From: an uncultured Thermoplasmatales archaeon
GTDB taxonomy: Archaea; Thermoplasmatota; E2; DHVEG-1
Direction: 5' to 3'
Length of the DNA stretch: 64,000 bases
Assembly (NCBI GenBank): GCA_964481275.1
Contig: CAYZTD010000002.1
Span: 133,378 to 197,377, forward strand
Shown here in pieces: positions 22,448 through 60,599 of the stretch. Below the pieces are notes generated by a model. It did no database searches. It had not been told where the DNA came from and worked only from the letters and a program-made list of their open reading frames with translations. Made by a program: the position numbers and the translations under genes. The first letter of the stretch is position 1. Each line of letters begins with the position of its first letter.

Positions 22448-22533
22448 TTATTTTATCTCAATTTTATACCAAAAATTTTATATATAACTAGATATATCTT
22501 TATAGAAAACAATATTAATGGATGTGATAAAAT

Positions 22534-23310
22534 ATGAAAAAAATAATATGTCTGTTATTAGTAGGAACTCTGTTACTAATAGGTTTTTCCTCTGTTTTAG
22601 TAACAGGTTTAGAAGCAAGAAATGAAACAGATGATAAAACTGTTGAACCATCTGATTTTGAAATATCGGAAGTTAAATTAACCGAAGAAGAATTTGATGG
22701 AATATATAATTGGTGTGAAGATATTGAAGATGTTAATTTGAAAGAAGAAGTAAGACAAGCTTTGGACGACACAATCTCATCAGAACGTGTTTTATATGTA
22801 CAAAAATTGGAACAAAAATTGTCACAATTAGAATATAATCCATATACTGAAGAGGATTTAAGTACTCTAGGAATTCTTCCAGCTTTTACAATTATAAGGT
22901 GTGAATGGACAGTTTATGATGAAGGAGAAGCGGAAAGAACTATACATTTTTGGATTTTTGGTTGGGGTAGACATGAAATAACGTGGGATACTCTAGATGA
23001 TCATGATGGAGATGGAACATGGGATCTTGGTCCAGGAACTCCTTGGCGTTATGAATGGACTGCATTATTATTTCCACTAAGACACTATGATGATTGGTGT
23101 TATTGGAAGGGCTATCCTGCTGGTCAGGCAAGAGTTAAAGTAATGTATAGTGTGGATGGTGATTCAGATGAAAAAATATTTACAGAACCTGAAGATGAAA
23201 GCGATACAGTTTCAAAAGCACCACATATGCTTTTTAACCAACTAAAAACAATTCTATATAAATTGGAAAAATTTGCAAAAGTTTTGAAGATATTTGAAAA
23301 TATTTGGTAA
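22534..23310 (+). CDS. secreted hypothetical protein with the shared C-terminal tail
   Basis: Signal peptide (MKKIICLLLVGTLLLIGFSSVLV). Trp-rich. The tail is HMLFNQLKTILYKLEKFAKVLKIFENIW. Confidence 0.6.
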   Translation: MKKIICLLLVGTLLLIGFSSVLVTGLEARNETDDKTVEPSDFEISEVKLTEEEFDGIYNWCEDIEDVNLKEEVRQALDDTISSERVLYVQKLEQKLSQLEYNPYTEEDLSTLGILPAFTIIRCEWTVYDEGEAERTIHFWIFGWGRHEITWDTLDDHDGDGTWDLGPGTPWRYEWTALLFPLRHYDDWCYWKGYPAGQARVKVMYSVDGDSDEKIFTEPEDESDTVSKAPHMLFNQLKTILYKLEKFAKVLKIFENIW

Positions 23311-24011: not shown

Positions 24012-24154
24012 TATCTTCAAAACTTTGCAAAATAATTATAAAAACATTTTTTTTATATTTCAATAGTTAATGAAACTATAAGATATTTTATCATGTTACC
24101 AATAGACATAAAAAAGATTTAATTATTTACCAAAACTAGGGGAAGTAACAATTT

Positions 24155-25332: not shown

Positions 25333-26703
25333 ATGAAAAATAAGATACTAGTTGTTATTTTAGCATTGATAATATCTTTTTCTACAATTTCAATTGGAAA
25401 AACTATTGTAACAGAAAAGGAAAATAAAAAAAAATTTTTGAAACAAAATAATACTGTTAATTGGACTGTAATGTATTATTTATGTTGCGATTCTAATATG
25501 TATGATTATGGAGATATGATATTAGAAAATTTATCAAAATTCGGTTCAAAAGATGATTTCAATTTAGTAGCACTATATGATGGAATATACTATGGTGATT
25601 CAAAAGTAATATATTTTAATTATAAAGGTGAAAAAGTCATTTTAAATGATGTTATAGGATGGCCAGATGAAGTTGATTATAGTAACCCCATAGTTTTTGA
25701 AGAATACTGTAAAAAAGTAATCGAGCTTTACCCAGCAGAACATTATGCATTTATAACCTATGGTTCTGCTGGAACTGGATGGCAAATATATTGTGTTCAT
25801 GACAGAACTGATGGTAAAACTGGTTTTTCTATACCACGTCTTGGAAAGGCTTTTAAAAATATAACAAAAAATGGAGAAGAAAAAATAGATGTTATATTTA
25901 CCTCATGTGCAATGAATGCAATAGAACTTGCATATGAAATATCTTCATATGTGGATTACATTGTTGGAACTCAGGATTGTTTATCAAAAGATTTTCCCTA
26001 TAGATTCTATAAACCAATATGGTCTTTATATAATAATACAAGTTTAAACCCAGAAGAATTCGCAAAAATTGTACCAGAACAACTTAGACCCCTTTCATTT
26101 TTTTATAGAGAGTCATATGAAGGAAAATTACCTTTAATTAGTAAAATACTAAATAAATTACCATTTAAAGGACTTCATACAGTAATGCATCATGATAATA
26201 CCGGTGTTGTAAATAACTCGAATATTAATAGACTTATTCAATCTGTTGATGACTTATCAAGATATTTGGCTTTGGAAATTAAAGATAAAGAAATAATAAA
26301 TAATATAAAAACAGCAAGAGATAAAGTAAGAGAAAGCGGTAAATGTAATGTTAAATATAATTTTCTTCCAATTGTTTTAATTCAAAAAAATCTTTGTTTG
26401 GAATTTTTATCATATGATGCCTTTATTGATCTATATGATTTTTGTGAAATATTAAAAAATACAACAGAAAATGATTTTTTAAAAATATACTGTGGATATG
26501 TTATGAAAAACATGAATTTAACAGTTCCATATATTAAAACTACAGAAAATGATCCTTTACATGGATTAAATATTTATTTTCCAGAAAATAAAAGAATGTA
26601 TAATATGGATCTTTTAAATGGTCCACTTCCTTGTTTATATGAAGAATTATTTTTTTCAAAAGATACGTGTTGGGATGAATTTCTAAAAGCCTATTACAAC
26701 TAA
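25333..26703 (+). CDS. secreted clostripain-like (peptidase C11 family) protein, possibly lacking the catalytic His
   Basis: Signal peptide present. It aligns to the 35834..37429 C11 paralog. Catalytic-Cys context TSCAM matches DACLM, but the WDHGSGW His motif is replaced by YGSAGTGW. Confidence 0.65.
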   Translation: MKNKILVVILALIISFSTISIGKTIVTEKENKKKFLKQNNTVNWTVMYYLCCDSNMYDYGDMILENLSKFGSKDDFNLVALYDGIYYGDSKVIYFNYKGEKVILNDVIGWPDEVDYSNPIVFEEYCKKVIELYPAEHYAFITYGSAGTGWQIYCVHDRTDGKTGFSIPRLGKAFKNITKNGEEKIDVIFTSCAMNAIELAYEISSYVDYIVGTQDCLSKDFPYRFYKPIWSLYNNTSLNPEEFAKIVPEQLRPLSFFYRESYEGKLPLISKILNKLPFKGLHTVMHHDNTGVVNNSNINRLIQSVDDLSRYLALEIKDKEIINNIKTARDKVRESGKCNVKYNFLPIVLIQKNLCLEFLSYDAFIDLYDFCEILKNTTENDFLKIYCGYVMKNMNLTVPYIKTTENDPLHGLNIYFPENKRMYNMDLLNGPLPCLYEELFFSKDTCWDEFLKAYYN

Positions 26704-26830: not shown

Positions 26831-28687
26831 ATGGGGAATAAAGAAAGGGTATTTAGAACTATTTTAGTTGCATTTTTTATGCTGTCTATAGGAACAAGTA
26901 GTTTTTTTATAGAAAATAATGTTAAAGCCGATGAGGAAACAGATTTTCTATCCGGAAGAGATATAGAACTTCTTTGTGGATTTGTTCCACCAGATAACTG
27001 GTGGAAGGATGCAAATTTTTATTTTATGAAATCATCAGGGGGTCAACCATCAAGTTTTGACTGGCGTGATAAAGGGGGAGTAACCCCTGTTAAAGATCAG
27101 GGAAATTGCGGCAGTTGCTGGGCTTTTGGAACTGTGGCACCACTGGAAAGCGCTATAAAAATACGTGAAGGAATAACTGTTGATCTGTCAGAACAATGGC
27201 TTGTTAGCTGCAATCGTGATGGATGGGGTTGTGGTGGTGGCTGGTGGGCTCATAACTATCATCAATGGAAAACAGGTAAATGCGGAGGATTTGGAGCAGT
27301 ACTTGAGGATGATTTTCCATATAGCGCTTCAGATGAATCCTGTGGTGGTCCATATGATCATCCATATATAGTTGAGGATTGGGCTTTTATAGGTGGAGAA
27401 GGAAGTGTTCCTCCAACAGAGGATATAAAACAAGCAATAATTGACTATGGTCCAGTTTCAGCAGCCGTGCGGGTTACAAATGACTGGAATGGTTATGATG
27501 GAAGTTATGTTTATGACAATGACGCCTCTGGAAATGTAAATCATGCAATAACTATTGTTGGATGGGATGACAACATGGGATCTGACGGTGCGTGGATTAT
27601 CAAAAATAGCTGGGGTCCTAGATGGGGGGACAACGGTTACATGTACATCGAATATGAATGTAGCCGTGTTGGATATTCAGCTTGTTTCGTAAATGGCTAT
27701 CACGGACCTCCAATTGAAAGCAAGGAAAAAATAACATTTACTGTAGAAGAAATAACAAACGATCCAAATAGAGGAAATTTTGATCCCATCGAACCACCTT
27801 TTAATAAACCAGAATGGTATTATCGAGTCGGAACTGCAGTATCAGGTGAGACCAAACAGCAATTTAACTATAACATGTGGACTGAAAATCTTGGAAATTT
27901 TGGATATAATTCAGAATATACTTGGAAACCACAAGAAAATCATGTTTTTTATACAGGTGAACCAACAATTGATGTAACATTTAAGCTAATGGAAAATGAT
28001 AAATTTTTTGAAGAGGGAATAATTTTTAAAGATGATCTTGCTGATGTAAGTGCTTTTCCTGGTGGAGGAAAAGATAATGATATATCTGATTATAGACCTG
28101 CAATTTATCATGGAACATACAACCTTGTCACAGGTGAACTAACAGGTGATGATACATCTGGTCCTGACTCCCAAGGAAATTATATAACTTTGGGTGATGG
28201 AATCAATAATGCAAAGGTATGGTTTAAGATAACAGATAGTTACAATGAGGATTTGTATGAGCCAGATATCCATGTTTCACCATCAAAATTAAGTTTTGGA
28301 GAAGTGAATCAGGGTGAAAATCCATCAAAAACATTCTCGATTGAAAACCTAGCTAATTTTGATGAAAACGAATGGCAAAAGCTAGATTGGACTGCATCTG
28401 ATAACAAAAATTGGATAAGTCTTAGTAAAACATCTGGTTCTTTAAATGGTGGACAGAGTGACATAGTTGCAGTTACATTAGATACAGATCAACTTCAAAA
28501 AGGAAATGATTACTCTGGAACAATAACAGTAGATTCAAATGATGAAACAAAAACAATAAGCGTCAGTGTGACAATCAAAAAATCATCATCAATAGAAAAT
28601 CCATTTTACATCTTTTTACAGAATCTTTACCAAAAAGTCATTGAATTCTTACAGAGATTAATGCCAAACAACATTCTAAATCTGTAA
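26831..28687 (+). CDS. secreted papain-family (C1A) cysteine peptidase with C-terminal extension domains and the shared tail
   Basis: Catalytic triad contexts are present: QGNCGSCWAFG (Cys), NHAITIVGWDD (His) and IIKNSWGPRWG (Asn). Signal peptide present. A C-terminal ~160-aa domain is shared with 34039.. and 37419.. proteins. The tail is ENPFYIFLQNLYQKVIEFLQRLMPNNILNL. Confidence 0.85.
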   Translation: MGNKERVFRTILVAFFMLSIGTSSFFIENNVKADEETDFLSGRDIELLCGFVPPDNWWKDANFYFMKSSGGQPSSFDWRDKGGVTPVKDQGNCGSCWAFGTVAPLESAIKIREGITVDLSEQWLVSCNRDGWGCGGGWWAHNYHQWKTGKCGGFGAVLEDDFPYSASDESCGGPYDHPYIVEDWAFIGGEGSVPPTEDIKQAIIDYGPVSAAVRVTNDWNGYDGSYVYDNDASGNVNHAITIVGWDDNMGSDGAWIIKNSWGPRWGDNGYMYIEYECSRVGYSACFVNGYHGPPIESKEKITFTVEEITNDPNRGNFDPIEPPFNKPEWYYRVGTAVSGETKQQFNYNMWTENLGNFGYNSEYTWKPQENHVFYTGEPTIDVTFKLMENDKFFEEGIIFKDDLADVSAFPGGGKDNDISDYRPAIYHGTYNLVTGELTGDDTSGPDSQGNYITLGDGINNAKVWFKITDSYNEDLYEPDIHVSPSKLSFGEVNQGENPSKTFSIENLANFDENEWQKLDWTASDNKNWISLSKTSGSLNGGQSDIVAVTLDTDQLQKGNDYSGTITVDSNDETKTISVSVTIKKSSSIENPFYIFLQNLYQKVIEFLQRLMPNNILNL

Positions 28688-28702: not shown

Positions 28703-29422
28703 TTATCTATTTTTTTTCTTAATTTCCTTAGCTGGAATCCCACCATATATCTTGCCCTTTTTTAGAATCTGGTCTTTTCTAACTACTGCTCCTGACGCCA
28801 ATTTAACATTATCTTGTATTATTGCACCAGGCATAATAACTGCACCTGCACCTATTACAACATTATTTCCAATTTTTACAGATTTCATAGTTATAGTTCC
28901 TTTTTCATAATCGTGAATATGACCATAAATTACAGAAAATAAACCCATAGTACAATTATCTCCAATCTCTGTTAAACAAGGATCCATAATTGTTCCACCA
29001 ACAAGACTGTTTTTACCGATTTTCATGCCAAGTAATCTATAATATCTATCTTTCATACCTCCCATAGAAAAAATTTCAAGTATTTTTCTCATAGGAGTAT
29101 ATAAAACACATATAATAATCCATTTTAGACTGTTTTTATTTTTATAGTTGTATTCATAAACACCTGGTTTGTACTTGATATTAAAAAGATGAATAAACAA
29201 TCCCGATATTAATAACTGAAAAAATAAAGTTATAAATATTCCTATATATATTAAAAAAGGAATTAAAAATAGTTGCCAATTTTTTGTAAATGTAAGAAAT
29301 AAAAATATAAATTTAACATATAAAACAAGAGGTGAAAATCCCATAGAAAAAATTACAAGCGCTATTATTGAAATTAATATTGGGCCAGTAATTTTACCTG
29401 ATTTTTTTTTCTTTTTAACCAT
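28703..29422 (-). CDS. membrane-anchored hexapeptide-repeat (LbH) acyl/acetyltransferase
   Basis: N-terminal TM helices. C-terminal left-handed beta-helix repeats (IGNNVVIGAGAVIMPGAIIQDNVKLASGAVV). Confidence 0.7.
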   Translation of the reverse strand: MVKKKKKSGKITGPILISIIALVIFSMGFSPLVLYVKFIFLFLTFTKNWQLFLIPFLIYIGIFITLFFQLLISGLFIHLFNIKYKPGVYEYNYKNKNSLKWIIICVLYTPMRKILEIFSMGGMKDRYYRLLGMKIGKNSLVGGTIMDPCLTEIGDNCTMGLFSVIYGHIHDYEKGTITMKSVKIGNNVVIGAGAVIMPGAIIQDNVKLASGAVVRKDQILKKGKIYGGIPAKEIKKKNR

Positions 29423-29431
29423 AAAAACCTC

Positions 29432-30700
29432 TTATAATTCTATTTTTTCGTATTCTTCATTTGCCATTTTAATAAAATTGTAATATTTTTCTGGGTTATT
29501 TCTGTTTAGATTATTTATAGCTTTTTTTTGAAAATTTATGGCATTTTTAAAAAAGATTTGATTTTTACAACTTAAATTCATTCCTAAATATCTTTGATAT
29601 TTATTAAAAGTAATTTTAGTATAGTTAAAACATCTGTCAGATAGATTTTTTTCAACTAATTTTTTTTCTTCAGTAAACATCTGTGATTTACTACCTTCTT
29701 TACAATCTATGTAATAAGGTCTGACATTGTTGTTTTCTATCCATATCCATCTTTCTTCTCCTTTCATTAATGGGAAAATATAATCTGTTTTTGTATCATT
29801 TTCGTCTTGTGGATAACATATACGATTAATTATCTGTCTTTTAGTTTCGTATGGAGTTTCACCTTTGGTTGTATCAAGTAAGACCCAGCCATAGTCTGGA
29901 ACATAGTATTCAACCATATAATGCATCTGAGTCCAAAAACCTTGATCATTATTTACAAGTAAAACTCTTGATGGAATGTTTTTGTTTCTTAAAAGTGCAC
30001 AGGCCAGATGAGACCTACCTACATTCTCTCCATTAATAAAAAGAGTAGTTAATGCATCTTGTGAAAAAAAGAGTCCTGTTCTTAATTGTATTAAAAACAA
30101 TATGGATCTATGGTTTTTAATAAAAGAAGAAACCCGATCTGCGTAACTAATCAGATTGTTATGAAATAATTTTATTTGCATAGCTTTTAATTTTATGAAG
30201 ATATTGTTAGTTTGAACTACATCTGTTTCAGATAGCCATTTCTTTGTGTTTTTTGGGAGGTTTTCTTTTTCTTGAAATTCAACTGTTTCAGGTAATTCAT
30301 TGAATTCCTTATTTTCAACTAATACCCATACTGTAAAATGAATAAGTTTTTTTTCATCTTTATACATTTTATTTACTGTAAAATTTACAAATTTATTAGG
30401 TTCTAAAGTGTCATTTATTATTCTATAATTTATTATATCTGCTGTACTGTCATTATATATTTCTAGCAGTATTGGTACTTGATAATTATAGATTGGTGGA
30501 AATGCATAGCTAATGTTAAAGACGTCTGTGTTTTCTTCGGCTAAAAGATCAAGATAGTGTTCAACTCTTAATAAAAATATTTCAGATTTAGTATTGATGT
30601 TTTTCTTTATATCTATTGAAGCAACTTTAGCATTATAAAAAAAACTAAGCGAGATAAGAAAAATAGTTATCAATATAACTAATTTTTTTTTCTTCGACAT
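29432..30700 (-). CDS. secreted transglutaminase-like cysteine protease-fold protein
   Basis: Signal peptide present. The transglutaminase-core Cys/His/Asp contexts are present (GRSHLACALL, QMHYMVEYYVPDYGWV, LLDTT). Confidence 0.6.
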   Translation of the reverse strand: MSKKKKLVILITIFLISLSFFYNAKVASIDIKKNINTKSEIFLLRVEHYLDLLAEENTDVFNISYAFPPIYNYQVPILLEIYNDSTADIINYRIINDTLEPNKFVNFTVNKMYKDEKKLIHFTVWVLVENKEFNELPETVEFQEKENLPKNTKKWLSETDVVQTNNIFIKLKAMQIKLFHNNLISYADRVSSFIKNHRSILFLIQLRTGLFFSQDALTTLFINGENVGRSHLACALLRNKNIPSRVLLVNNDQGFWTQMHYMVEYYVPDYGWVLLDTTKGETPYETKRQIINRICYPQDENDTKTDYIFPLMKGEERWIWIENNNVRPYYIDCKEGSKSQMFTEEKKLVEKNLSDRCFNYTKITFNKYQRYLGMNLSCKNQIFFKNAINFQKKAINNLNRNNPEKYYNFIKMANEEYEKIEL

Positions 30701-30765: not shown

Positions 30766-32346
30766 TTATGTTGATTTTTTAGCAACTATAACAAATTTCC
30801 AATCTTCTTTACTAACTTGTTTATAAATTATCTCAAAATTTGATTTTTCAACTAATCTAGATGCATTATCAATTGTAAAGGCGGTTTTATAAGCATCAGT
30901 AAAATAACTAACAGTTTTAAAATCAGTTGTTTTAAAAATCCATTTCAATCTTAAAATAAATAACTTCCATTGCGGAAAATTTTTATTTAAAGCTTCAATT
31001 ATAAGCTTTCCTCCTGGTTTTAATATTCTATTAATTTCTTTTATGCTTGCAAGTGGTTTTTTCCAGTAAGAAAGACTAAAGCGACTTACCACAATATCTG
31101 CAAAATTGTTTTCGAATGGCATATTTTCAGAAGAAGCTAAAATTGTTTCTATATTAGCGTTTTTTCTTGCAAGTTCAAGCATATATTCTGATTTATCAAC
31201 ACCAACGACTTTTGCTTTAGGAATCAATTTATTAATTTCTTTAGCTAAAAGACCGGGACCTGTACCTAAATCAACAATGGTAGCTTGTTTAATCTTTTTA
31301 TCGATATTTTTTTTAACAATTTTTGCAAGATTTTGATAAAGATTAGAATATTTCATCATGTATTTTTCGAAACGATTACAAATTTTTTTATCTAATATTT
31401 TTTTTTCTTCTAATCTTTTTGTTTCATAAAATGTTACAAAAGATCCTATAACGCTAGGTGTAATCCATAATATTACATAACAAAACAAAGAAAAACTAAT
31501 CACTTGTTCTACTGAAATACTTGAATCATAAAAATTAAACATAGTAATAAGTGCTACTTCTCTTGTTCCTATACCATATATCGAAACTGGAATAGATGCA
31601 ATAACATCACTTACAGCTATAATCATAATAAAATAAAAAATAGGAATATTTATCAAAAATAATTTAGCAATAAAAAACAAAAGAATATACTTCAAAAACC
31701 AGTTAAATAGTGAAATTCCAAAAGGATATAGAACATCTCTAAATTTGGGTAGATCCTCATAAAAACTATCTACAGATTTCTCTAAACGATTTTTTATTGT
31801 ATTAAAAATTTGAGACTTTATTAATTTTGAAAATAAATTTTTAGATCTTTCTTTTTTAAAAAAAAACATGTATAATAGTATAATTATGACAAAAATAGCT
31901 AGAATTATAAGCAATAAATATGGATAAATGCTGCTAAGAACTATGGCACCAAGAGCACCAAAGACAAGCATGGCTGTGAATTCAACTGTATTAAATATTA
32001 TGATATTCGAAAGGCATTTTGGAAGCGGGGCACGACTTTCGTCTGATAGATATATAGATTTTGTATATGCACCAAATCCACCTGGTGTTATAAAACCATA
32101 AAAATATCCTATAAAAAAATTTTTTAGAGAATACCAAAAACTAACCTTAATCTTTTGTCTTTTTAAAAGAATCTGCCATTCAACATTTGCAATTAAAACC
32201 AAAGGAATTAAAACAAAAAAAGAAAAAAACGAATAAAATGGATTGATTTTTTGAAAAATTTCTAAAATCCTATTAAAATTCAATTGACTTAAAATTAATA
32301 TAAATATGATAATACCAATTAGAGGTAATAATTTTTTAATTTTCAT
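30766..32346 (-). CDS. fusion of a lysylphosphatidylglycerol-synthase-like/flippase-like TM domain with a class I SAM methyltransferase
   Basis: The N-terminal ~320 aa is polytopic, in the UPF0104/LPG_synthase_TM style. The C-terminus has SAM motif I (VDLGTGPGLLAKEI) and post-I (VVGVDKSEYMLELARKN). Confidence 0.65.
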   Translation of the reverse strand: MKIKKLLPLIGIIIFILILSQLNFNRILEIFQKINPFYSFFSFFVLIPLVLIANVEWQILLKRQKIKVSFWYSLKNFFIGYFYGFITPGGFGAYTKSIYLSDESRAPLPKCLSNIIIFNTVEFTAMLVFGALGAIVLSSIYPYLLLIILAIFVIIILLYMFFFKKERSKNLFSKLIKSQIFNTIKNRLEKSVDSFYEDLPKFRDVLYPFGISLFNWFLKYILLFFIAKLFLINIPIFYFIMIIAVSDVIASIPVSIYGIGTREVALITMFNFYDSSISVEQVISFSLFCYVILWITPSVIGSFVTFYETKRLEEKKILDKKICNRFEKYMMKYSNLYQNLAKIVKKNIDKKIKQATIVDLGTGPGLLAKEINKLIPKAKVVGVDKSEYMLELARKNANIETILASSENMPFENNFADIVVSRFSLSYWKKPLASIKEINRILKPGGKLIIEALNKNFPQWKLFILRLKWIFKTTDFKTVSYFTDAYKTAFTIDNASRLVEKSNFEIIYKQVSKEDWKFVIVAKKST

Positions 32347-34038: not shown

Positions 34039-35802
34039 ATGAGTTCAAATAAAAATACTAATAATCTTTTTGTAAAAAAGTTGATAGTAAAGAAAATATC
34101 TATATTAACTATAATTTTTTGTTTATTAACAATTTCATTTTTTAACCCTCTTACTATGGCATTACAATCAAAAAGTGAAATTTTAGAAAAAAATAGGGAA
34201 TTATCATTGGGAGATGGAATAGATTTTTCAATTGTTATACATAGGATAGAACAAATTGACGAAATAGATCCTTCTATACATGGTGAAGCTGATTGGACCT
34301 TAAGGATGTATGTAAACAACCAAAAACAAACTTTTGAATGTGAGGGGGATTCAGTTGTAGTTGATAAATGTTTTACTTGGGAAAAAATAATACAAGATGA
34401 CACAGAAGAATTAGATATAAAAATGGAACTAAAAGATAGAGATCCTTGGCCTGATGTTGATGATATAGCAGATATAAGTGCTTATCCTGATCTTTCTTAT
34501 GAAGATAAAGATTATGATGATACAACCGATTTTGAAAATAATAGACCTGCAGTTTTCAAAAGAACATATAATATACTAAATAAAACCTGGAAAGATGAAG
34601 ACGAAGAAAACGATTATTTAAAATGGGATGATGATTCAATTTTAGGGTGGTGGATTACTTCAGGTATTTTTGATGGGAGTACTAATAGAGACGAAAATGA
34701 TGCTCAGATATGGTTTAATATTTCTATAGAAAATAAACCTCCTTATCCACCAGAAAAACCTTCAGGTCCTACAATAGGATGGGAAAATACGGTATATGAA
34801 TTTAGCACAAAATCTCACGATCCAAATGGAGAAAAAATCCAATTTGGGTGGGATTGGGATTTTGATGGTGAAGTTGATGAAATAACTGGATTCTATGAAT
34901 CATGGGAAACCGCCAGTATTTATCATAGTTGGTCTAAAGCAAAAATTTACCATATACGTGTTTTAGCCATAGACTCACATGGTTTAACTAGTGAATGGTC
35001 TGAACCACTTAAAATTGAGATAAACGGCATTAATGGCAAATCAGGAATGGATATTCAAGATTGGAGTATGGGCCATGTTTATTCAATTTATTTTAATCAT
35101 CATGAAACCCAGGAAATAATAAGATCCCTAAGAAGTGGGGGAAATATTGTAGCAGCTGTTGCGACAATAATCACAACAATTGCAGCGATGAGTGGTGTAC
35201 CACTTGATATAAGCGCGGCGACAGCACTTGCTGGAGCTATAATACGTTTAGGAGTAGAAGTTATAAATTTAATGGATCATGGAATGGGAATATATGTCCG
35301 AATATATTTGGTTGAGATTGAAGGAGTGCCTATTGCATATTTTGCATATATATGGTCTCAATCTATGACTGCTAACGAGGGTGAATCTCCTGAAGGAAAT
35401 AAATCACCAGATGTCCCTTCTAAACCAGAATGCGATTCAAACTTTTTCTTAGTAGAAAATGAATATACTTTTACATGCCAAGCTACTGATCCAGATGGAG
35501 ATAAAGTTAATCTTCTTATTAGTTGGGGGGACGAAAATTACACTTGGACTGATTTAGTAAATTCAAATACTGAAATAACTGTTCACCATAAATGGAATAA
35601 AAAAGGATCCTATAATGTTAAAGTAAAAGCATTTGATGAATATGGAAATGAAAGCAGTTGGTCTGAATCTCTAACACTGAAAGTAAGTAAGGCTAAATCA
35701 AAATCAACAATTAATCTTAGTTTAAGAGAAAATTTATTTCTTACAATTTACAAAATATTAAATTTATTTGAGAAAAATTTTACAGATTTAATACCAAAAT
35801 AA
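34039..35802 (+). CDS. secreted PKD-domain protein carrying a shared ~160-aa unknown domain and the shared C-terminal tail; first gene of a three-gene secreted operon
   Basis: Signal/anchor sequence present. Unknown domain (ADWTLRMYVNN...DDIADISAYPD...NRDENDAQIWFNI). PKD domains (PPEKPSGPTIGWENTVYEF...FGWDWDFDG; LISWGDENYTW...VKVKAFDEYG). The tail is NLFLTIYKILNLFEKNFTDLIPK. Confidence 0.8.
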   Translation: MSSNKNTNNLFVKKLIVKKISILTIIFCLLTISFFNPLTMALQSKSEILEKNRELSLGDGIDFSIVIHRIEQIDEIDPSIHGEADWTLRMYVNNQKQTFECEGDSVVVDKCFTWEKIIQDDTEELDIKMELKDRDPWPDVDDIADISAYPDLSYEDKDYDDTTDFENNRPAVFKRTYNILNKTWKDEDEENDYLKWDDDSILGWWITSGIFDGSTNRDENDAQIWFNISIENKPPYPPEKPSGPTIGWENTVYEFSTKSHDPNGEKIQFGWDWDFDGEVDEITGFYESWETASIYHSWSKAKIYHIRVLAIDSHGLTSEWSEPLKIEINGINGKSGMDIQDWSMGHVYSIYFNHHETQEIIRSLRSGGNIVAAVATIITTIAAMSGVPLDISAATALAGAIIRLGVEVINLMDHGMGIYVRIYLVEIEGVPIAYFAYIWSQSMTANEGESPEGNKSPDVPSKPECDSNFFLVENEYTFTCQATDPDGDKVNLLISWGDENYTWTDLVNSNTEITVHHKWNKKGSYNVKVKAFDEYGNESSWSESLTLKVSKAKSKSTINLSLRENLFLTIYKILNLFEKNFTDLIPK

Positions 35803-35833
35803 ATAAAGCGGTGATGAAAGGAGATTAAAAGAT

Positions 35834-37429
35834 ATGAAAACTAATAAATTACTTTTAATAGCAATTTTTTTTATGCTGTTAAACACGTTAATAGCTAATG
35901 CAGGTTATGTACGAATTGGAGGAAATGAAAACAAATTTTTTGATAATTTAAAACTAGAGACTTCTTCTAATTCTAAATGGACTGTCATGGTTTATATGGA
36001 TGCAGATAATGATCTTGAACAATTTGCAATATATAATTTCTTACAGATGTCTGAAATAGGATCAACAGATGAAGTAAATATTGTTGTTCAACTTGATAGG
36101 ATTCCTGGCTATGATAACAGTTATGATGATTGGACCTCGGCTAAACGTTATTACATTCAGAAGAATATGGTACCAAACTCCAACAGTGCTTTAATGGATA
36201 TTGGGGAAGTAGATATGGGGGATTGGAATACATTAAAAGATTTTTACAATTGGGCTGTTTATAATTATCCTGCAGAAAAATATTGTCTCATTCTCTGGGA
36301 TCATGGTTCAGGCTGGAAAATGGGTGGAGAAACGACTTCTCCCTTTAAATGTATCTGTTCAGATTTTACAAATGGTGGAGTTATGTCTCTTCAGGATTTA
36401 AAAAATGGTTTAGATTCGATAACCCAACAAGGTAGAAATCCAATAGATTTAATATGTTTTGATGCTTGTTTAATGCAGATGATTGAAGTAGGATATGAAA
36501 TTAGATATTGTGCAGATTATATGACTGCCTCAGAGGAAGTTGAAACTGCTTATGGTTTAACCTATGATGATGCACTTTATCTATTAACTGAAGATGCTAA
36601 TGTTTCAGCTGATATCCTTGGAAGTTATTTTGTTAATTCTTATAAATATGAAACAATGTCAACAGTAGATCTACAAACTTTTGATTATCTAAAAGATGCG
36701 GTTAATAATTTAGGTAGCCACTTACAAGCTGAGGAATATAAGAGTTATATCAAGAATGCTATAAGGGATGTTGAGACCTATTACGATTATGATTTTGTGG
36801 ATTTATATGATTTTGCAAATCTATTAAAAAATTATATAGATGATTCAAATATCGATTATAAAGCAGATATGGTCATGGCTGGAGTAAATCAAGCTGTGCT
36901 TTATGAAAAACATGATTATAATCATCAAAGATCTCATGGTATCTCAATATATATGCCCTATAGAGAGTATGATTTTGCTTATGGTGATATTAGTTTTGCT
37001 ATGGATTCTTCATGGGATGAGTTTGTTATGTGGTATTTTGGCGGTAGTACAGGTAACGAACCAGAGATTCCTGAGATTGATGGTCCCGGATCTGGTAGTG
37101 TAGGGGTAGAATACGGCTATAGATTTCTTTCATCCGATCCTGATGATGACGATATATATTATTATGTTGAATGGAGTGATGGACAGAGTAGTGGTTTAAT
37201 TGGTCCTTATCCTTCAGGACAAGAAATTGTTTTATATCACAGCTGGGAAAATGAAGGATGGTATTTAGTTAGGGCAAAGGCAGTAGACGAGCATGGCCAT
37301 GAAAGTGATTGGAATCAATTAAATGTTGGAATGCCTAAGAAAAAATGTGTTTTTAAACAAAATACTATTCTGTTTTATTTATTTGAAAAATTTTTTGAAA
37401 AAATAACTGATTTATATTTTGGAGTGTGA
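35834..37429 (+). CDS. secreted clostripain-family (C11) cysteine peptidase with a C-terminal PKD domain and the shared tail
   Basis: Signal peptide present. Catalytic-dyad contexts LILWDHGSGW (His) and LICFDACLMQ (Cys). PKD domain (EIDGPGSGSVGVEYGYRF...YYYVEWSDG...RAKAVDEHG). The tail is NTILFYLFEKFFEKITDLYFGV. Confidence 0.85.
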   Translation: MKTNKLLLIAIFFMLLNTLIANAGYVRIGGNENKFFDNLKLETSSNSKWTVMVYMDADNDLEQFAIYNFLQMSEIGSTDEVNIVVQLDRIPGYDNSYDDWTSAKRYYIQKNMVPNSNSALMDIGEVDMGDWNTLKDFYNWAVYNYPAEKYCLILWDHGSGWKMGGETTSPFKCICSDFTNGGVMSLQDLKNGLDSITQQGRNPIDLICFDACLMQMIEVGYEIRYCADYMTASEEVETAYGLTYDDALYLLTEDANVSADILGSYFVNSYKYETMSTVDLQTFDYLKDAVNNLGSHLQAEEYKSYIKNAIRDVETYYDYDFVDLYDFANLLKNYIDDSNIDYKADMVMAGVNQAVLYEKHDYNHQRSHGISIYMPYREYDFAYGDISFAMDSSWDEFVMWYFGGSTGNEPEIPEIDGPGSGSVGVEYGYRFLSSDPDDDDIYYYVEWSDGQSSGLIGPYPSGQEIVLYHSWENEGWYLVRAKAVDEHGHESDWNQLNVGMPKKKCVFKQNTILFYLFEKFFEKITDLYFGV

Positions 37430-39803
37430 TTTATTGAAACTTGTAAAAATTTTGTTTGTAGTAGTTCTGTTGTTAACATGCAGTTCTTCAGTGGTATCAA
37501 TATATAACAAAAAAAATTTAGAAACAAACGACGTAGGATATGATACTTCAGCTGAATTACCTACATGGAATAAGGGTAACTATTGGAAATATGATATGGA
37601 TTTTGGTTTTATAGTTCGCAATAATGGTTTTAAAGAATTTTCTGTAGTTGCATCAATTAATAATATGAATGCTAGAGTAACAAATACCATTAATTACGAA
37701 GATGATGAAGTTTATGTTTTGTTGCTAGATGGTGATATTTCAGGTAAGATTTTTATTCTTGGCGAGATTGATTTAGCAGATATCGATGCAGACTTAGATG
37801 GAGTTGCATATATTTCTACTTCAACACTTGGCATTAAATATTTTAATTTCGATGTTGAAGGCAAAGTTAATTTGGTTGGTTGGCGGGATATAGATTTTGA
37901 TATGGTTATGAATTTTGTTCCTGAGTTTAACTTCTTTGATTTTCCTATAAATGTAAAAGAGGATCCATGGGAGGTTTATATTGATGAAGCATCTCTTTCT
38001 GCAGATGTTTATGTTGATCTTCCAGGGCCTTTTGATTTTAGAGATAGTTATTCCTCCTCGATGGTTTTTAATGATAACATGTCGATTAATAGAACTGAAA
38101 CTATAGATATTCCTGCAGGTATTTTCGAAACCATTGTCATAGATGGAAGTTGGGGTTATTATTCTAACCTTTATTATTCTGATTGTGTTGGTTATTTGGC
38201 AAAAATTGTAGAAAGATTATATTGGCCAGAAAATGAAGGGCAAATCGAATCGATTTTTAATTTAGAATTAATTGAAACAAATTTTGATGGAGGTAATATT
38301 CCTCCTAATAAACCAGATCGACCCTATGGGCAAACTGATGGTATAGCTGAAGAAGAATATCAATACAGAAGTGAGACTACTGATCCTGAAAATGAAAAAA
38401 TATATTACCTTTTTGATTGGGGTGATGGTACAGATAGTGGATGGGTTGGCCCTTACAATTCGGGGGATCAAGTTATAGTCTCTAATAGATGGTATAATAA
38501 AGGCATTTATTCAGTAATTGTTAAAGCAAAAGACGAAACGGGTATCGAAAGTTTATGGTCTGATCCCTTAATTGTAAAAATAATGGGGGATCCAAATGTA
38601 GATGTATTTGTTTGTAATGTAACAAATTCTGGAATGGATGATATTGATGTGGGATCAGATCCTGAATGGTATTATATGGTTCATGCAGAAAGTAGTGGTT
38701 TAAGTTCTCCTCCTGAATTTAATTATAATACAGATGATGGAACTGAAAATGGGAACTGGATTAGTGAAAAAACTTGGGAGGCCAAAAAGAACCATAGATT
38801 TAAAGGTTACAGTCGTAATGTTACAATAAAGCTAAAGCTTATGGATCATGATGACAGATGGGAAGATCCTATCTATGCAGCAGATGATCTTGCAGATGTA
38901 AGTGGATGTATTGGAGGTGGGGTTGATCAAGATACTCCCAATAAACGTGGAGCTATGTATTATGGGACATATGATTTGGTTGAAAATAAATTAAAAGATT
39001 TTCAGACTGGAGATCCTTTGGAAAATGCAGATTACGTTTACAAAAAAAATGATTATTACATTACAGCTGGAGATCATATACCAGATGAAAGTTATAACGA
39101 GGATGAAAATGATGCTAAGATTTGCTTTAAGCTTTTTAACGATTATGAAAAACCAATTGTGAATGCTAGAATTTTAAATGAACCTGAAAGAATCAGACCA
39201 ATGCAAAATCTTCAATTTGTAGGATCAGTTCAAAATGGTGCTCCTGAGTATAAATGGTCCTGGGATTTTGATGATGGAACAATTTTAAAAGATGATCAAA
39301 AACCAGAACATAGTTTCCAAAATAAAGGAACTTATGATGTAACATTAACATTGACAGATGGATTCAATATAGATAGCATTTTTAAGCTAAATGTAAAAGT
39401 AGAAAACTATGATCCAGTTCTTACAGATGACAAAGTAAAATTTGATGGAAAAGGAGATTTAGACGATACATTTACTTTTTCGGTGAATTACCAAGATTTG
39501 GATGGAGATGATCCTGATGTAAAAACAGTTGTTATAAATGGGAAATCATGGAATCTAAATGGTTTTGGAGCAAATTCTGAATATAGTTTGGCCCTAAAAG
39601 GTAGAGACATTGGTCAGGGTAGTCATGAATTTTATTTTTATTTTGAGGATGGTCATGGTGGTAGTGCACAAACTGAACCTAAAAACTTAGAGGTAAGTAA
39701 AACAAAAGTAAAAACAGATACTTTCTTTCTGAAATTAATGACTTTCTTCAAAGAAAACATTCTTTCTAAAATTGTGAATCTCAATCATATCACATTAGGT
39801 TGA
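37419..39803 (+). CDS. large secreted multi-domain protein (PKD domains, shared ~160-aa unknown domain, shared tail)
   Basis: The ORF overlaps the upstream gene, and the track start is TTG. Signal peptide-like N-terminus. PKD domains (PPNKPDRPYGQTDGIAEEEY...LFDWGDGTDSGW...VKAKDETG; a second near SWDFDDGT). Unknown domain (PEWYYMVHAE...DDLADVSGCIGGG...NEDENDAKICFKLF). The tail is TFFLKLMTFFKENILSKIVNL. Confidence 0.8.
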   Translation: MECDLLKLVKILFVVVLLLTCSSSVVSIYNKKNLETNDVGYDTSAELPTWNKGNYWKYDMDFGFIVRNNGFKEFSVVASINNMNARVTNTINYEDDEVYVLLLDGDISGKIFILGEIDLADIDADLDGVAYISTSTLGIKYFNFDVEGKVNLVGWRDIDFDMVMNFVPEFNFFDFPINVKEDPWEVYIDEASLSADVYVDLPGPFDFRDSYSSSMVFNDNMSINRTETIDIPAGIFETIVIDGSWGYYSNLYYSDCVGYLAKIVERLYWPENEGQIESIFNLELIETNFDGGNIPPNKPDRPYGQTDGIAEEEYQYRSETTDPENEKIYYLFDWGDGTDSGWVGPYNSGDQVIVSNRWYNKGIYSVIVKAKDETGIESLWSDPLIVKIMGDPNVDVFVCNVTNSGMDDIDVGSDPEWYYMVHAESSGLSSPPEFNYNTDDGTENGNWISEKTWEAKKNHRFKGYSRNVTIKLKLMDHDDRWEDPIYAADDLADVSGCIGGGVDQDTPNKRGAMYYGTYDLVENKLKDFQTGDPLENADYVYKKNDYYITAGDHIPDESYNEDENDAKICFKLFNDYEKPIVNARILNEPERIRPMQNLQFVGSVQNGAPEYKWSWDFDDGTILKDDQKPEHSFQNKGTYDVTLTLTDGFNIDSIFKLNVKVENYDPVLTDDKVKFDGKGDLDDTFTFSVNYQDLDGDDPDVKTVVINGKSWNLNGFGANSEYSLALKGRDIGQGSHEFYFYFEDGHGGSAQTEPKNLEVSKTKVKTDTFFLKLMTFFKENILSKIVNLNHITLG

Positions 39804-40896: not shown

Positions 40897-40902
40897 TATT
40901 TT

Positions 40903-42213: not shown

Positions 42214-42514
42214 AGGAAAATATAAGGTTTTTTTAGAAAAAAAAGAACTTGATGATGATTTAGTTTTTATTTTAGGTGGCGGTGAAAAATCCCATGTTGG
42301 TGGAGTAGTTATTTGTGAACCAGAAAAAAAACCAACTGTAATAAAGTTAGGTACTCACCATGATTATATTGTTTTAACGCCGATTGCCGAAAGAGCATGT
42401 GAAAAATATAATAAAACTGTAGCTGTAATTGGTGGTATACATATAGATAATGCAACCAAGGAAGAAATCAGTATAATTGTTAAAAATTGTACGGAGTTAT
42501 TAAAATGCATTTAA
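42197..42514 (+). CDS. small conserved hypothetical protein embedded in the mevalonate operon
   Basis: 105-aa ORF overlapping both neighbours in an operon-like arrangement. No recognisable family. Confidence 0.45.
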   Translation: MIISGKGKYKVFLEKKELDDDLVFILGGGEKSHVGGVVICEPEKKPTVIKLGTHHDYIVLTPIAERACEKYNKTVAVIGGIHIDNATKEEISIIVKNCTELLKCI

Positions 42515-52537: not shown

Positions 52538-53566
52538 TCATAATCCAAATAAATTTTTAATGTTTTTCAGATAAGGTGATGATGCTAGATTAATATTGCT
52601 AAGTATATTTTCTAATGTAAAAATTTTAGATTTAGCGTTACTAATTTTAAATTCATATGTTATTTTATCTGATTTACAATAATCATCTGTATTTTCACAG
52701 GTTATTTCAACATAAATCCCATCACCTTTTGCTGCCGGGGTTGTATCTATTTCAACATCTATATCTATTTTTCCATCTTCTGGAATTAAGTCTTCACCAT
52801 TCTTTGGTCTTATTTCTATATCCAGACTCGGTAAATCATTCCCAATTCTTGTACTTCTCACTTCAGCAATCCCTTTTAATCGCCAATCTAGTTTTGAACC
52901 GTCTTGACCTATATTTTCTAAACTAACTGTTCCTTGAATAATAGATCCTACTTTTACATTATCCCAGTCTAAATTACTTGTTAATCTAATTTCAGGTTCA
53001 TAAGAAAACTCAAAATCGATATGAACTGTTTTCCATTTATAATCTGTTTGACACCAGACCCATGTAAAGTTTTCGCCTATAGGTTTATATTCTGAATGTT
53101 CTCCTTGTAAGTAAATTTCTACAGGATTATAAAATAATTCTTCTGCCTTGACTTCTACATATAGCGTTCTGCTATCTTCATCTATGCTCCAATCATTATC
53201 ACTAAAGCTTTTAGAATCATTTCCTTTGATATCTGTATCAGATACATCTTTATCTATACTAAATTCCCATTTCTCTTCCCATGTGTTTAATGCCCCTTCT
53301 TTAAAATCACAATCAACAGTTAACTTATATAAATCATCTATGTCATAACTTACAATACTGATTGGATTTTCTTTGAGATTAATTTTAACTATACCATCAT
53401 AGATTGTTATTTTACCTAAATTTATAGTATCGGTATATTCTTCGTAGCTTAATTTGTTATTTTTAATTTTATTTACCTTTTTATTTATTGAAATTCCATT
53501 TATTGATGGTATCAATATCACTAATGCTATAACTAATATTAAGGTTATATTTACTATTTTATTCAT
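52538..53566 (-). CDS. secreted hypothetical protein with the shared C-terminal tail
   Basis: Signal peptide (MNKIVNITLILVIALVILIPSING). The tail is KSKIFTLENILSNINLASSPYLKNIKNLFGL. Confidence 0.6.
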   Translation of the reverse strand: MNKIVNITLILVIALVILIPSINGISINKKVNKIKNNKLSYEEYTDTINLGKITIYDGIVKINLKENPISIVSYDIDDLYKLTVDCDFKEGALNTWEEKWEFSIDKDVSDTDIKGNDSKSFSDNDWSIDEDSRTLYVEVKAEELFYNPVEIYLQGEHSEYKPIGENFTWVWCQTDYKWKTVHIDFEFSYEPEIRLTSNLDWDNVKVGSIIQGTVSLENIGQDGSKLDWRLKGIAEVRSTRIGNDLPSLDIEIRPKNGEDLIPEDGKIDIDVEIDTTPAAKGDGIYVEITCENTDDYCKSDKITYEFKISNAKSKIFTLENILSNINLASSPYLKNIKNLFGL

Positions 53567-58557: not shown

Positions 58558-59100
58558 TTATATTTTATTAAAAATCTTTTTTATTTCTTCTCTAAAACTA
58601 TTTATGTCTTTTTCATTTGAAATAATAATATCTGAGGAAGCAATTACACTTCCAAGTCCCCAACCTAGCTCACGTTTATCTCTTTTTTTTATTTTTTCCA
58701 AATCTTTACTATCATCTTCTCTATTTCTATTCATAGCTCTCTTATATCTTGTTTTATCAGATACTTCAATACCTATTAAAATAAAATCAGCGTTTAGTTT
58801 TTCTTTGAAAGTTTCAACTTCTTCTAAGTTTCTAATCCCATCTACTACAAGATATCTTGTGTCTTTTATATCTTTTATTTTATCAATTGTTTTTTTTGCC
58901 CAGATGTCTTTTCCGTGTTTTTTTCTCATTTCATTTGCTACATATCCTACGTTTTTATCATTTATTTCTAAATCTCTTTTTTTTACTTCTTGCCAAACCA
59001 TATCTCCCATTCTTATAACTGGAATTTTCATTTCTTTTGCTATTTTTACTGCTTCACTTTTTCCTGAAAAAGGCATTCCTGCAAATGCTAAAATTTTCAC
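58558..59100 (-). CDS. P-loop nucleotide kinase (UPF0200 / adenylate-kinase-like family)
   Basis: Walker A motif FAGMPFSGKSEA. About 180 aa. Confidence 0.6.
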   Translation of the reverse strand: MKILAFAGMPFSGKSEAVKIAKEMKIPVIRMGDMVWQEVKKRDLEINDKNVGYVANEMRKKHGKDIWAKKTIDKIKDIKDTRYLVVDGIRNLEEVETFKEKLNADFILIGIEVSDKTRYKRAMNRNREDDSKDLEKIKKRDKRELGWGLGSVIASSDIIISNEKDINSFREEIKKIFNKI

Positions 59101-59115
59101 TTATTCACCATATTT

Positions 59116-59343
59116 TTATTTTTTTGATTTTTTATATCTTGATTTATAAAGTGAGAATGTTGCAATAGGAAATACAATTATAAAAAAGACTATCCAGACC
59201 CAAATTGATATCTCTTCTTCATAGTAACCTAATAGTAAAATTATTGGAACTTCAATTAAGAGAGTTATTGCAAGTCCCCAAACTATCGAACCTATTAGTG
59301 ATGTATCTTTTCCTTTCCAAATTAAACCCCATGCATAAGACAT
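59116..59343 (-). CDS. small 2-TM membrane protein
   Basis: 75-aa hydrophobic ORF just upstream of the kinase gene on the same strand. Confidence 0.4.
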   Translation of the reverse strand: MSYAWGLIWKGKDTSLIGSIVWGLAITLLIEVPIILLLGYYEEEISIWVWIVFFIIVFPIATFSLYKSRYKKSKK

Positions 59344-59908: not shown

Positions 59909-60571
59909 ATGAATGCGAAAAAAATAGATTTAGATGCTATAGATATAAAAGAAAAAGCATATCTAATTGGTATCATAGTTGGAGATGGGTATTTATATCA
60001 TGATAATTGGAGGCATTACAAGGTTAATATTTACTTAAATCCAAATAAAGATAAAGACGTAGCTAATTTTGTTCTATTTTTACTAAAGAAAGTAGGTCTT
60101 AATCCATATGAAATGCATCATCATGGATGTTTAGTTATAAGATTTAATTCAAAATCATTTTTTAATTTTATTGAAAAAGAATTAAAAAGAATTAAAAACA
60201 TCGATATTAAAAATAAGGATTTTATGATTGGTTTTATATCAGGATTTATAGATTCTGATGGCTATGTATCTTATGGAGATATTGTTATTTCAAATAAAAA
60301 AAAAGAATTGATAGAAAAGACAAATAATTTTTGTAAAAATTTGAAAATATATTCTAAAATTTGGAGTCAACATAATCTATTCCGTGGTAAAATTTTTGAT
60401 ATATGGAGATTGAGAATAGGTACTAGTTTTAAGTATGAGGAACATTATTCCCAAAAATTAAATCGGATATATGGCGGGGCGCTGCCCATCATAGCGAGTA
60501 TTAATTCAGAAATGGATGATACCTATAAGGGTGGGGTAGCCAGGAAATCCCGACGGGCCCATAACCCGTAG
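59909..60571 (+). CDS. LAGLIDADG-family homing endonuclease (double-motif); 3' end reads into the tRNA-Met 5' exon
   Basis: Two LAGLIDADG-type motifs are present (LIGIIVGDGYL and IGFISGFIDSDGYV). The true stop is uncertain because the reading frame continues through the tRNA gene. Confidence 0.7.
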   Translation: MNAKKIDLDAIDIKEKAYLIGIIVGDGYLYHDNWRHYKVNIYLNPNKDKDVANFVLFLLKKVGLNPYEMHHHGCLVIRFNSKSFFNFIEKELKRIKNIDIKNKDFMIGFISGFIDSDGYVSYGDIVISNKKKELIEKTNNFCKNLKIYSKIWSQHNLFRGKIFDIWRLRIGTSFKYEEHYSQKLNRIYGGALPIIASINSEMDDTYKGGVARKSRRAHNP

Positions 60572-60599
60572 ATCAGTGGTTCAAATCCACTCCCCGCTA
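60473..60599 (+). tRNA. initiator-type tRNA-Met (anticodon CAU) interrupted by a ~52-nt non-canonical intron between the acceptor stem and D arm
   Basis: The contiguous 3' part has D arm GGGG-UAGCCAGGAAA-UCCC, anticodon arm ACGGG-CCCAUAA-CCCGU with three G-C pairs, T arm AGUGG-UUCAAAU-CCACU and 3' acceptor CCCCGCU-A. The only complementary 5' acceptor strand (GGCG/GGG) lies about 52 nt upstream at 60473. Confidence 0.6.

Follow-up and report, generated by a model that had tools for sequence, protein, structure and literature searches.

A Conserved, Export-Linked Amphipathic C-Terminal Tail on Exported Proteins of Thermoplasmatota Archaea

Introduction

The Escherichia coli enzymes PBP5 and PBP6 are exported and held at the outer face of the cytoplasmic membrane by a C-terminal amphipathic helix, non-covalently. 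In eukaryotes, the C-terminal glycosylphosphatidylinositol (GPI) signal is processed by a transamidase of the C13 peptidase family. The substrates of sortases, exosortases and archaeosortases are marked by a tripartite C-terminus, which is composed of a signature motif, a hydrophobic membrane-spanning domain and a charged end (PMC6098224). Herein, a C-terminal tail of about 30 residues is described that has neither the motif nor the membrane span nor the charged end and therefore lies outside the tripartite class. It was encountered in a stretch of 64,000 nucleotides from an uncultured Thermoplasmatales archaeon (contig CAYZTD010000002.1, positions 133,378 to 197,377), which is termed the window hereafter, where an operon of three genes (34039..39803) had been taken by an earlier note on this DNA to define a shared, possibly new sorting or anchoring tag. 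The analysis shows that this tail genuinely exists as a conserved and modular C-terminal tag, which is linked to export, predicted to be helical and not membrane-spanning.

No match to an already described sorting-signal family, which that note had named as fatal to its proposal, was found: no model of Pfam-A or NCBIfam release 20 matches the nine window tails or five canonical and intermediate forms even at E<=10, and a PDB sequence search with the tail returned chance-level matches only. A PADLOC search, barely relevant to such a tail, gave no match either, and no description was retrieved by a full-text literature search by sequence string and by concept, including Thermoprofundales genomics and archaeal surface biogenesis. 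The tag is apparently undescribed so far.

Uncultured sediment Thermoplasmatota have been reported to live on detrital protein by means of extracellular C11, C25, C13 and C1 peptidases (PMC6461988, PMC9585477), and a reliance on extracellular C11, C25, C13 and C1A peptidases has been reported for the Thermoprofundales lineage of this phylum (PMC6461988). How such enzymes and their products are retained without an outer membrane is not addressed in PMC6461988 or PMC9585477, and a shared tag offers a concrete and testable answer.

Consensus, Abundance and Distribution of the Tail

The canonical consensus was obtained from word-indexed searches, in which a tail alignment led to 3 short fragments and a 68-residue tail fragment to 28. 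Short metagenome fragments carry the ending ...WSDPLxVSMPKNKxINTPFLxFLENHPHLFPLLRQLLGL-COOH, the archetype in related genomes has the sharp form P-[KR]-N-[KR]-x-I-N-T-P-F-L-x-F-L-E-N-H-P-x-L-F-P-L-L-R-Q-L-L-G-L-COOH, and 264 anchored tails give the consensus P-[KRM]-N-[KRQ]-x(1-3)-I-N-[TS]-[PL]-F-L-x-F-L-[EQ]-[NQ]-H-P-x-[LM]-F-P-[LI]-L-[RQ]-x-L-L-G-L. The module is constructed from a basic hinge (P-K-N-K), separated from the hydrophobic part by about 5 to 8 residues in canonical tails, and one or two short amphipathic helices broken by proline (FLxFLENHPxLFPLLRQLLGL). Conservation of the polar residues E, N, H and R is 73-90%, and the tail ends exactly after the final Leu of ...LLGL in 66%, although the consensus frequencies are biased upward because the loci were fetched by the pattern FL[EQ][NQ]HP[HNR][LMI]F. 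About 119 of some 128 hinges that can be recognised read P-x-N-x, and loss of both lysines still leaves the Asn in place (PMNQ). As the hinge is also found after contexts other than PKD domains, such as TIDVSLTTPKNK and DFCFKTYHTKPKNK, it belongs to the tail module and not to the PKD domain.

A 44-position profile (A3) built from the canonical tail alignment was scored against 1.84 billion cluster representatives (clusters at 50% identity). It matched at least 1,856 representatives at E<=1e-3 and 405 at E<=1e-10, and in almost every one of the top 150 matches listed it lay at the very C-terminal end of the protein. Two proteins carry tails at two places, P0220 (994 residues) at 269-312 and at its C-terminus, and P0248 (586 residues) at 283-323 and at its C-terminus; both appear to stem from tail-bearing genes in tandem, by fusion or read-through, and, if real, would be natural test cases for tail cleavage.

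A scan of one genome per species yielded 108 confirmed sites and 77 loci, the latter with 126 matching open reading frames (ORFs), most of which end 0 to 6 residues past the motif. Nearly all genome matches lie in metagenome-assembled genomes (MAGs) labelled Thermoplasmatota, Thermoplasmatales or Thermoplasmata, and a single MAG holds at least 13 loci. Two short tail-bearing contigs are binned as Heimdallarchaeota and Altiarchaeota; both are probably mis-binned, and the tail of one of them is nearly identical to one in a Thermoplasmatota MAG of the same series. No tail-bearing protein was found among viral contigs. In 62 canonical tails, 46% of the identical residues use different codons, which indicates that conservation acts at the protein level, and the module is under purifying selection at that level; a DNA-level repeat as the origin of the tail was rejected in view of the abundant synonymous variation.

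Signal-peptide-like N-termini were called in 89 of the 98 complete tail-bearing ORFs and in 180 of 582 other ORFs (Fisher p 2.5e-30), and several of the remaining nine show a signal-peptide-like start on inspection. The domains that Pfam assigned to 108 carriers are all of extracytoplasmic type, comprising PKD (77), NosD/beta-helix (6), PQQ propeller (4), C1, C25, C13 and FG-GAP (3 each), C14 (2), S8 (1) and CBM96 (1). A compositional bias that is shared by cytoplasmic proteins and vanishes beyond this genome, which the earlier note had accepted as contrary to its claim, is hence not what emerged from at least 1,856 clusters, 77 loci and the above association with export.

Paralogues within one genome share tail signatures, for example ...LLQRLGLQ in a pair of MAGs, INRxIxxFLQQHPNLFP...K[LF] in one further MAG and NINLLFLRFLExHPxMFPILRHMLGL in a third group, which is the outcome expected from co-evolution with a genome-encoded partner. 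The conserved polar positions, together with the genome-specific endings, suggest a common partner for the tails.

Relation of the Window Tails to the Family

Nine window proteins have been considered as carriers, and all nine possess a signal-peptide-like N-terminal hydrophobic segment by a heuristic call, in accordance with the earlier note, as well as a C-terminus without a membrane-spanning-like segment. The tails end in ...LLGL, ...ILKF, ...YFGV or ...LLNL, with basic residues 20 to 30 positions upstream, and most of those in the window lack the hinge Asn and the HP/FP core. The only near-canonical tail of the window, SMPKNKGIKNTFFDFLQQYPGIFEFIQRILKF at 5549..5644, terminates the exported two-PKD protein 4343..5647 (+). 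It is also the only one that was significant against profiles of external tails (25.7 to 51.9 bits), the tail-only profile giving 51.9 bits and E 3.7e-15 at residues 404-434 of 434. An exported papain-family (C1) peptidase with a BACON/immunoglobulin-like (Ig) region, 26831..28687 (+; PF00112, E 7.7e-49), has its tail at 28571..28684 and matched marginally at 7.2 bits. Profile A3 was not significant for eight of the nine tails, including those of the three operon proteins, which are encoded on the + strand by gene 1 (34039..35802; tail KVSKAKSKSTINLSLRENLFLTIYKILNLFEKNFTDLIPK at 35680..35799, 2.0 bits), gene 2 (35834..37429; tail GMPKKKCVFKQNTILFYLFEKFFEKITDLYFGV at 37328..37426) and gene 3 (37419..39803; tail EVSKTKVKTDTFFLKLMTFFKENILSKIVNLNHITLG at 39690..39800).

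Two further approaches place these diverged tails. In an enrichment test, the 493 ORF C-termini that the window encodes in its six frames, derived from the same AT-rich DNA, served as a compositional null, and the profile was built from the tails of external C11 orthologues only. The claimed tails were recovered at ranks 1, 2, 3, 5, 6, 9 and 17 of 493 (hypergeometric P 5e-10), gene 2 being at rank 1, the exported protein 52538..53566 (-; diverged tail at 52541..52642) at rank 2 and gene 3 at rank 17. For positional homology, the last 140 residues of the window proteins were aligned to canonical-tail proteins from other genomes, resulting in E values of 5e-44 for 5833..7206, 6e-35 for gene 2, 2.6e-15 for gene 1, 2e-7 for 26831..28687, 6e-7 for 52538..53566 (with a protein of locus L029) and a weak 0.04 for gene 3. 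The five stronger alignments reach both C-termini, and the K-x-K hinge of the window proteins falls on P-K-N-K. In the strongest case, the exported protein 5833..7206 (-), with its diverged tail STAKQKSLHKIGPNKILRNYPMISSIIEYLLKY at 5836..5934, is aligned with proteins of loci L072 and L043 through their canonical tails, ILRNYPMISSIIEYLL lying opposite FLENHPRMFPILRYML. Five window proteins, among them those of genes 1 and 2, are placed in the family because their homologues bear recognisable tails at the same position.

The clostripain-family (C11) peptidase of gene 2 provides a graded series. Nearly all of its approximately 20 closest full-length homologues end in M-P-[KR]-x-K followed by a hydrophobic-polar tail, and its orthologues P0001-P0024 have same-position tails that grade to the canonical form in P0020 (...ITIPRNKAVNSPFLRFLEQFPNAFPILRQLLGL); distant bacterial C11 homologues end in type IX secretion (PF18962), SLH or dockerin-type domains instead. 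Directly upstream of the C11 orthologue P0006, at the position of gene 1 and, from that position, presumably orthologous to it, a PKD gene of locus L080 ends ...TVSKTKSLVGSPFFNFLEKIIERFPFLGKFLSI, a tail that bridges the canonical and window forms.

Two small exported proteins are candidate family members by physicochemical resemblance. The first, 8097..8660 (-), has a tail-like end ...HPIFVLLQRILQRPIFSRLLNL at 8100..8192 (apparent free energy of membrane insertion, dGapp, +12.1; hydrophobic moment 0.68) that resembles the ends of P0008 and P0016 (...FPIFSKLLNLH), with only a local similarity over 29 residues (E 7). The second, 22534..23310 (+), has an amphipathic C-terminus at 23206..23307 (hydrophobic moment 0.67), for which no alignment reaching both C-termini was obtained.

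Taken together, the three operon proteins and at least four other exported window proteins end in lineage-diverged copies of the module. The sharing of a tail proposed by the earlier note is therefore sustained for 4343..5647 by profile and for five proteins by homology, is weak for gene 3 and is a matter of resemblance for two. Its tail strings are all present, although four had been cut short of the true ends, which are ...KIVNLNHITLG (gene 3), ...NNILNL (26831..28687), ...ENIW (22534..23310) and ...LFGL (52538..53566), and its view that unrelated domains carry the tail agrees with the C11 peptidase of gene 2, the C1 and BACON domains of 26831..28687 and the PKD domains recognized by Pfam. 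The idea that the operon defines the tag has to be abandoned, because its three tails fail the family profile and are tied in via homologues only; the archetype lies outside the operon, whose tails are among the most degenerate.

Physical Character and Predicted Structure

The minimum 19-residue summed Hessa dGapp of the tails is +10 to +16 kcal/mol (+11.7 for gene 1 and +10.2 for gene 3), so that they are not membrane-spanning, as had been maintained from the outset. The controls were +0.8 for the Loki-CTERM-type tail of 3..791, a further window protein discussed below, and -4.4 to +0.1 for other membrane-spanning window C-termini. The hydrophobic moment has a median of 0.67 in the tails (0.65 in gene 1) and 0.48 in other window C-termini (p 0.0013), and basic residues are situated upstream of the hydrophobic part, not downstream.

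AlphaFold2 with alignments gave a confident PKD sandwich, a linker and then helices at a predicted local distance difference test (pLDDT) score of 53-69. In 4343..5647, helices were predicted at positions 89-96 and 98-108 of the last 110 residues, and in gene 2 a linker led into a single helix that covers positions 95-113 of the C-terminal 115 residues (pLDDT 53-64). The low scores of the tail helices point to a flexible appendage rather than a domain part, and in these models the tail does not pack against the preceding domain.

Comparison with Described C-Terminal Signals

The tail resembles the tripartite signals (LPXTG, PEP-, PGF-, PEF-, Loki-, GlyGly- and MYXO-CTERM) in several respects: it is short and modular, forms the very C-terminus of proteins with a signal peptide, is restricted to a lineage, occurs in many copies per genome and is attached to unrelated extracytoplasmic domains. 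It differs from them by the absence of a membrane-spanning helix and of a terminal basic cluster, and by charges that precede the hydrophobic part (PMC6098224). A tripartite signal of PGF type, NNQPGFEILAMFAAIAIALIILKKKK at 711..788 (+), does terminate the PKD protein 3..791, which bears out the earlier suggestion that two types of C-terminal tag coexist in the window. Its designation as a canonical PGF-CTERM was half right, since the only NCBIfam model that it passes is Loki-CTERM (22.8 bits, cut-off 19.9) and not PGF-CTERM, with Heimdall-CTERM at 18.7 against a cut-off of 24. The occurrence of a Loki-CTERM match in a Thermoplasmatota genome implies that the Loki- and Heimdall-CTERM models are not specific to Asgard archaea. 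A Lokiarchaeal affinity of the DNA, which could be read from this match, was rejected, as the housekeeping genes are 62-93% identical to, and syntenic with, those of Thermoplasmatota MAGs; the TFB is 93% identical to its match in L034, and the blocks 39949 to 44069 and 19960 to 25285 are syntenic with L007.

By analogy, the PBP5-like anchors are probably the closest match to the tail's probable mode of action. The carriers share with that class the export by signal peptide and a short C-terminal helix, predicted to be amphipathic and too polar to span the membrane, on a Sec-exported protein. The anchors of PBP5 and PBP6 are single, protein-specific and without a motif, whereas the tail has a sharp consensus, a hinge and a proline-kinked double helix, and is reused on many paralogues per genome (at least 13 loci in one MAG) and in at least 1,856 clusters across a phylum.

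The eukaryotic GPI signal likewise lacks a cytoplasmic tail, and its small or Asn residue, set off by a short spacer from a hydrophobic stretch that reaches the C-terminus, would correspond to the hinge Asn of canonical tails, a residue absent from most window tails; C13, C11 and C25 peptidases are abundant in tail-bearing genomes. The resemblance is loose, in that the tail is sequence-specific and conserved E, N, H, R, Q and P among its final 20 residues interrupt the hydrophobic stretch, and no transamidase or GPI pathway was identified. The type IX C-terminal domain of Bacteroidota is comparable as a conserved C-terminal tag on secreted proteases and adhesins with an N-terminal Sec signal, including C25 and C11 peptidases followed by Ig/PKD-like domains, and is removed by a C25-like sortase. 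It is, however, a beta-sandwich of 70 to 100 residues for translocation across the outer membrane, while the tail is a helical peptide of about 30 residues, and PF18962/TIGR04183 had no match on the window tail proteins in the Pfam and NCBIfam searches.

Putative Function and Alternative Explanations

The explanation to which the highest probability, roughly one half, is assigned is that exported hydrolases and adhesins are tied to the cell surface by the tail in a non-covalent manner. According to this putative function, a protein would be exported by the Sec pathway and relieved of its signal peptide, whereupon the tail would retain it at the surface non-covalently. The helices may bury their hydrophobic faces in the outer membrane interface or use them to bind a conserved surface partner, the hinge lysines would be placed at anionic lipid headgroups, and the hinge (K/R/N) may double as a release site for the cell's own Lys-, Arg- or Asn-specific cysteine peptidases. 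The persistence of the hinge and of amphipathicity in the window lineage, where the core is eroded, suggests that a generic membrane-affinity function has been retained there.

Several observations weigh against surface retention as so described. The operon tails fail the family profile and could be decaying remnants in the window lineage; between the window and the syntenic metagenome contig L001, tails are 72-84% identical and protein bodies 86-92%, from which a weaker constraint on the tail in this lineage follows. The conserved polar residues and the hinge Asn exceed what a generic membrane helix needs, and enzymatic recognition fits them at least equally well. Neighbour clustering around the 77 tail loci disclosed no recurrent receptor or partner gene, the recurring families being an AsnC regulator, an ABC ATPase, FtsZ, an integrase, an IS200 transposase, EarA and a nucleotidyl transferase. 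Finally, signal peptides of both the window proteins and the loci were called by a crude heuristic, not SignalP, and the retrieval of the loci by a pattern inflates the consensus frequencies.

Enzymatic recognition leads to an alternative that is possible, albeit clearly less probable than surface retention, in which the tail is a cleaved sorting signal that a dedicated enzyme cuts at the hinge Asn or Lys with covalent transfer to lipid, glycan or an S-layer component, a sortase-like reaction that would need no membrane-spanning segment. It would explain the strong conservation of specific residues across hundreds of paralogues and their genome-specific co-variation, the prevalence of P-x-N-x and the Asn that outlasts both lysines, as well as the strictly C-terminal location in many copies per genome, like PEP-CTERM and PGF-CTERM. 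Candidate enzymes are at hand in the clan-CD peptidases (C11, C13, C25) abundant in these genomes, and analogues would be PorU, a C25 peptidase with a sortase-like role on type IX C-terminal domains (PMC4560394), and the C13 GPI transamidase. Nevertheless, no candidate enzyme is linked to tail genes at the 77 loci, and the tail has no membrane-spanning helix, whereas the substrates of every known sortase, exosortase, archaeosortase and rhombosortase system rely on one for their positioning (PMC6098224); in addition, most tails of the window lineage are kept although their hinge Asn and HP/FP core have been lost. The lack of a membrane span and of a linked enzyme, along with the survival of degenerate tails, favours a generic physicochemical role. 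Somewhat more doubtful still is the extended proposal of a phylum-wide, hitherto undescribed sorting system of Thermoplasmatota, with the tail as its substrate signal, hinge cleavage and covalent attachment to lipid or glycan. If true, this would be the first case in prokaryotes of a C-terminal sorting signal that has no membrane-spanning helix, and the enzyme of the system could be a clan-CD transamidase, as Gpi8 in eukaryotes or PorU in Bacteroidota. The peptidase families C11, C25 and C13 have K, R and N cleavage specificities, and the K, R and N sites of the hinge would also suit a C-terminal propeptide without any anchoring role, which governs latency, folding or export timing and is removed at the basic hinge. 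This is unlikely: many carriers are indeed peptidases, which often have removable extensions, and the tail is not packed on the adjacent domain, yet the same tail occurs on non-enzymatic PKD, beta-helix and propeller proteins, and some 25 residues separated by at least one PKD domain from the catalytic domain would make an improbable inhibitor or intramolecular chaperone.

A self-associating, dockerin-like module that bundles exoenzymes through helical bundles instead of anchoring them to the cell has even less to recommend it. The heptad-like hydrophobic spacing (LLxxLLxL), the two-helix unit and the distribution of one tag over many hydrolases of a genome accord with such a role, but helices of 8 to 11 residues with proline breaks are poor coiled-coil material, and no scaffold or cohesin-like partner was present among the neighbours of the 77 loci. 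That the resemblance of the window tails is a compositional accident of an AT-rich genome, with ends rich in F, I, L, K and N, is hardly credible. Taken one by one, eight of the nine tails fall short of significance with the family profiles, and 5833..7206, 22534..23310, 26831..28687 and 52538..53566 had poor leave-one-out ranks in at least one design; the enrichment, the alignments that run through the tails and the orthologue series from degenerate to canonical nonetheless refute an accident for at least six proteins and leave it conceivable only for 8097..8660 and 22534..23310.

The tail offers a simple marker by which the surface proteome of these archaea can be predicted from sequence, and a handle for phylogenetic profiling toward a receptor or processing enzyme. 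It may represent a new class of sorting signal that departs from the tripartite sortase paradigm, could serve as an archaeal surface-display tag, and exposes a gap in Pfam and NCBIfam.

The Operon and Its Genes

The operon comprises three co-directional ORFs of 587 (gene 1), 531 (gene 2) and 794 residues (gene 3), and the coordinates and the 31-nucleotide gap between genes 1 and 2 reported in the earlier note were borne out. Gene 1 encodes an exported protein with an N-terminal hydrophobic region at residues 20-42, an N-terminal module without an assigned family, two PKD-like domains (PF00801 at residues 469-542) and the tail; gene 2 encodes the exported C11 cysteine peptidase (PF03415, E 8.5e-43) with a PKD-like domain and the tail; and gene 3 encodes an exported multi-PKD protein (PKD_4 at residues 587-650) with an N-terminal domain without a family and the tail, PKD domains thus being recognized by Pfam in all three.

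The TTG at 37419, which overlaps the stop of gene 2 and had been taken as the start of gene 3, does open the ORF, though as the start of the longest ORF only. A second TTG at 37434, 5 nucleotides past the gene 2 stop, is likely the true start, as it yields the signal peptide MKLVKILFVVV... and corresponds to the position at which the start of the gene 3 orthologue is called in L001. In this contig, the C11 protein is 86% identical to that of gene 2 and the gene order around the operon is identical; the pair of genes 1 and 2 is kept in one related contig, and the C11 gene is solitary in another. A scan for bacterial promoters and terminators in the operon gave signals at shuffle level only, archaeal promoters being outside the models of that scan, and an exact look-up of the gene 2 protein in the contig index gave no record.

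Apart from PKD domains, genes 1 and 3 share an Asp-rich module without an assigned family (BLASTP E 7e-7), which spans 34402..34728 (residues 122-230) in gene 1 and 38811..39143 (residues 465-575) in gene 3. Gene 1 also contains, at 35143..35205 (residues 369-389, NIVAAVATIITTIAAMSGVPL), a hydrophobic segment rich in Ala, Ile and Thr that is borderline membrane-spanning (dGapp +2.3), sits between the two PKD-like domains and is kept in the L001 orthologue.

Neighbouring Genes and Further Observations

The tail-bearing C1 peptidase gene is adjoined by a divergent C11 peptidase gene whose product has a signal peptide and no tail, beside which lie genes for a hexapeptide acyltransferase, an exported transglutaminase-like protein and an LPG_synthase_TM-methyltransferase fusion. 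This divergent block is conserved, its genes (25333..26703, 28703..29422, 29432..30700 and 30766..32346) being in the same order in L001; they are possible envelope-modifying or processing candidates, for which no link to the tail was found. Close to tail genes in Thermoplasmatota loci, a paralogous family of proteins of about 200 residues recurs in tandem, exemplified by L031:1064-1744 (-) with paralogues in L031, L060, L067, L072, L073 and L077, which is characterized by a signal-peptide-like start MNKKILIGSIIAVVILVLVSFTGVVGYQ..., a conserved SPLFxVRxxRAI motif and a Cys-rich hydrophobic C-terminus, and has no Pfam match.

Between 8097..8660 and the TFB gene, the gene 9087..10286 (+) encodes a DDE transposase with a SWIM zinc finger (PF01609, E 1e-22). 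A LAGLIDADG homing-endonuclease-like ORF at 59909..60571 (+; PF14528, E 5e-14) overlaps the 5' part of tRNA-Met(CAT) at 60530..60599 (+) by 42 nucleotides. Two ORFs of about 180 residues, 58558..59100 (-) and 58604..59149 (+), overlap almost completely in antisense; the former looks like a real P-loop kinase-like protein (MKILAFAGMPFSGKSEA...), and the latter is probably spurious.

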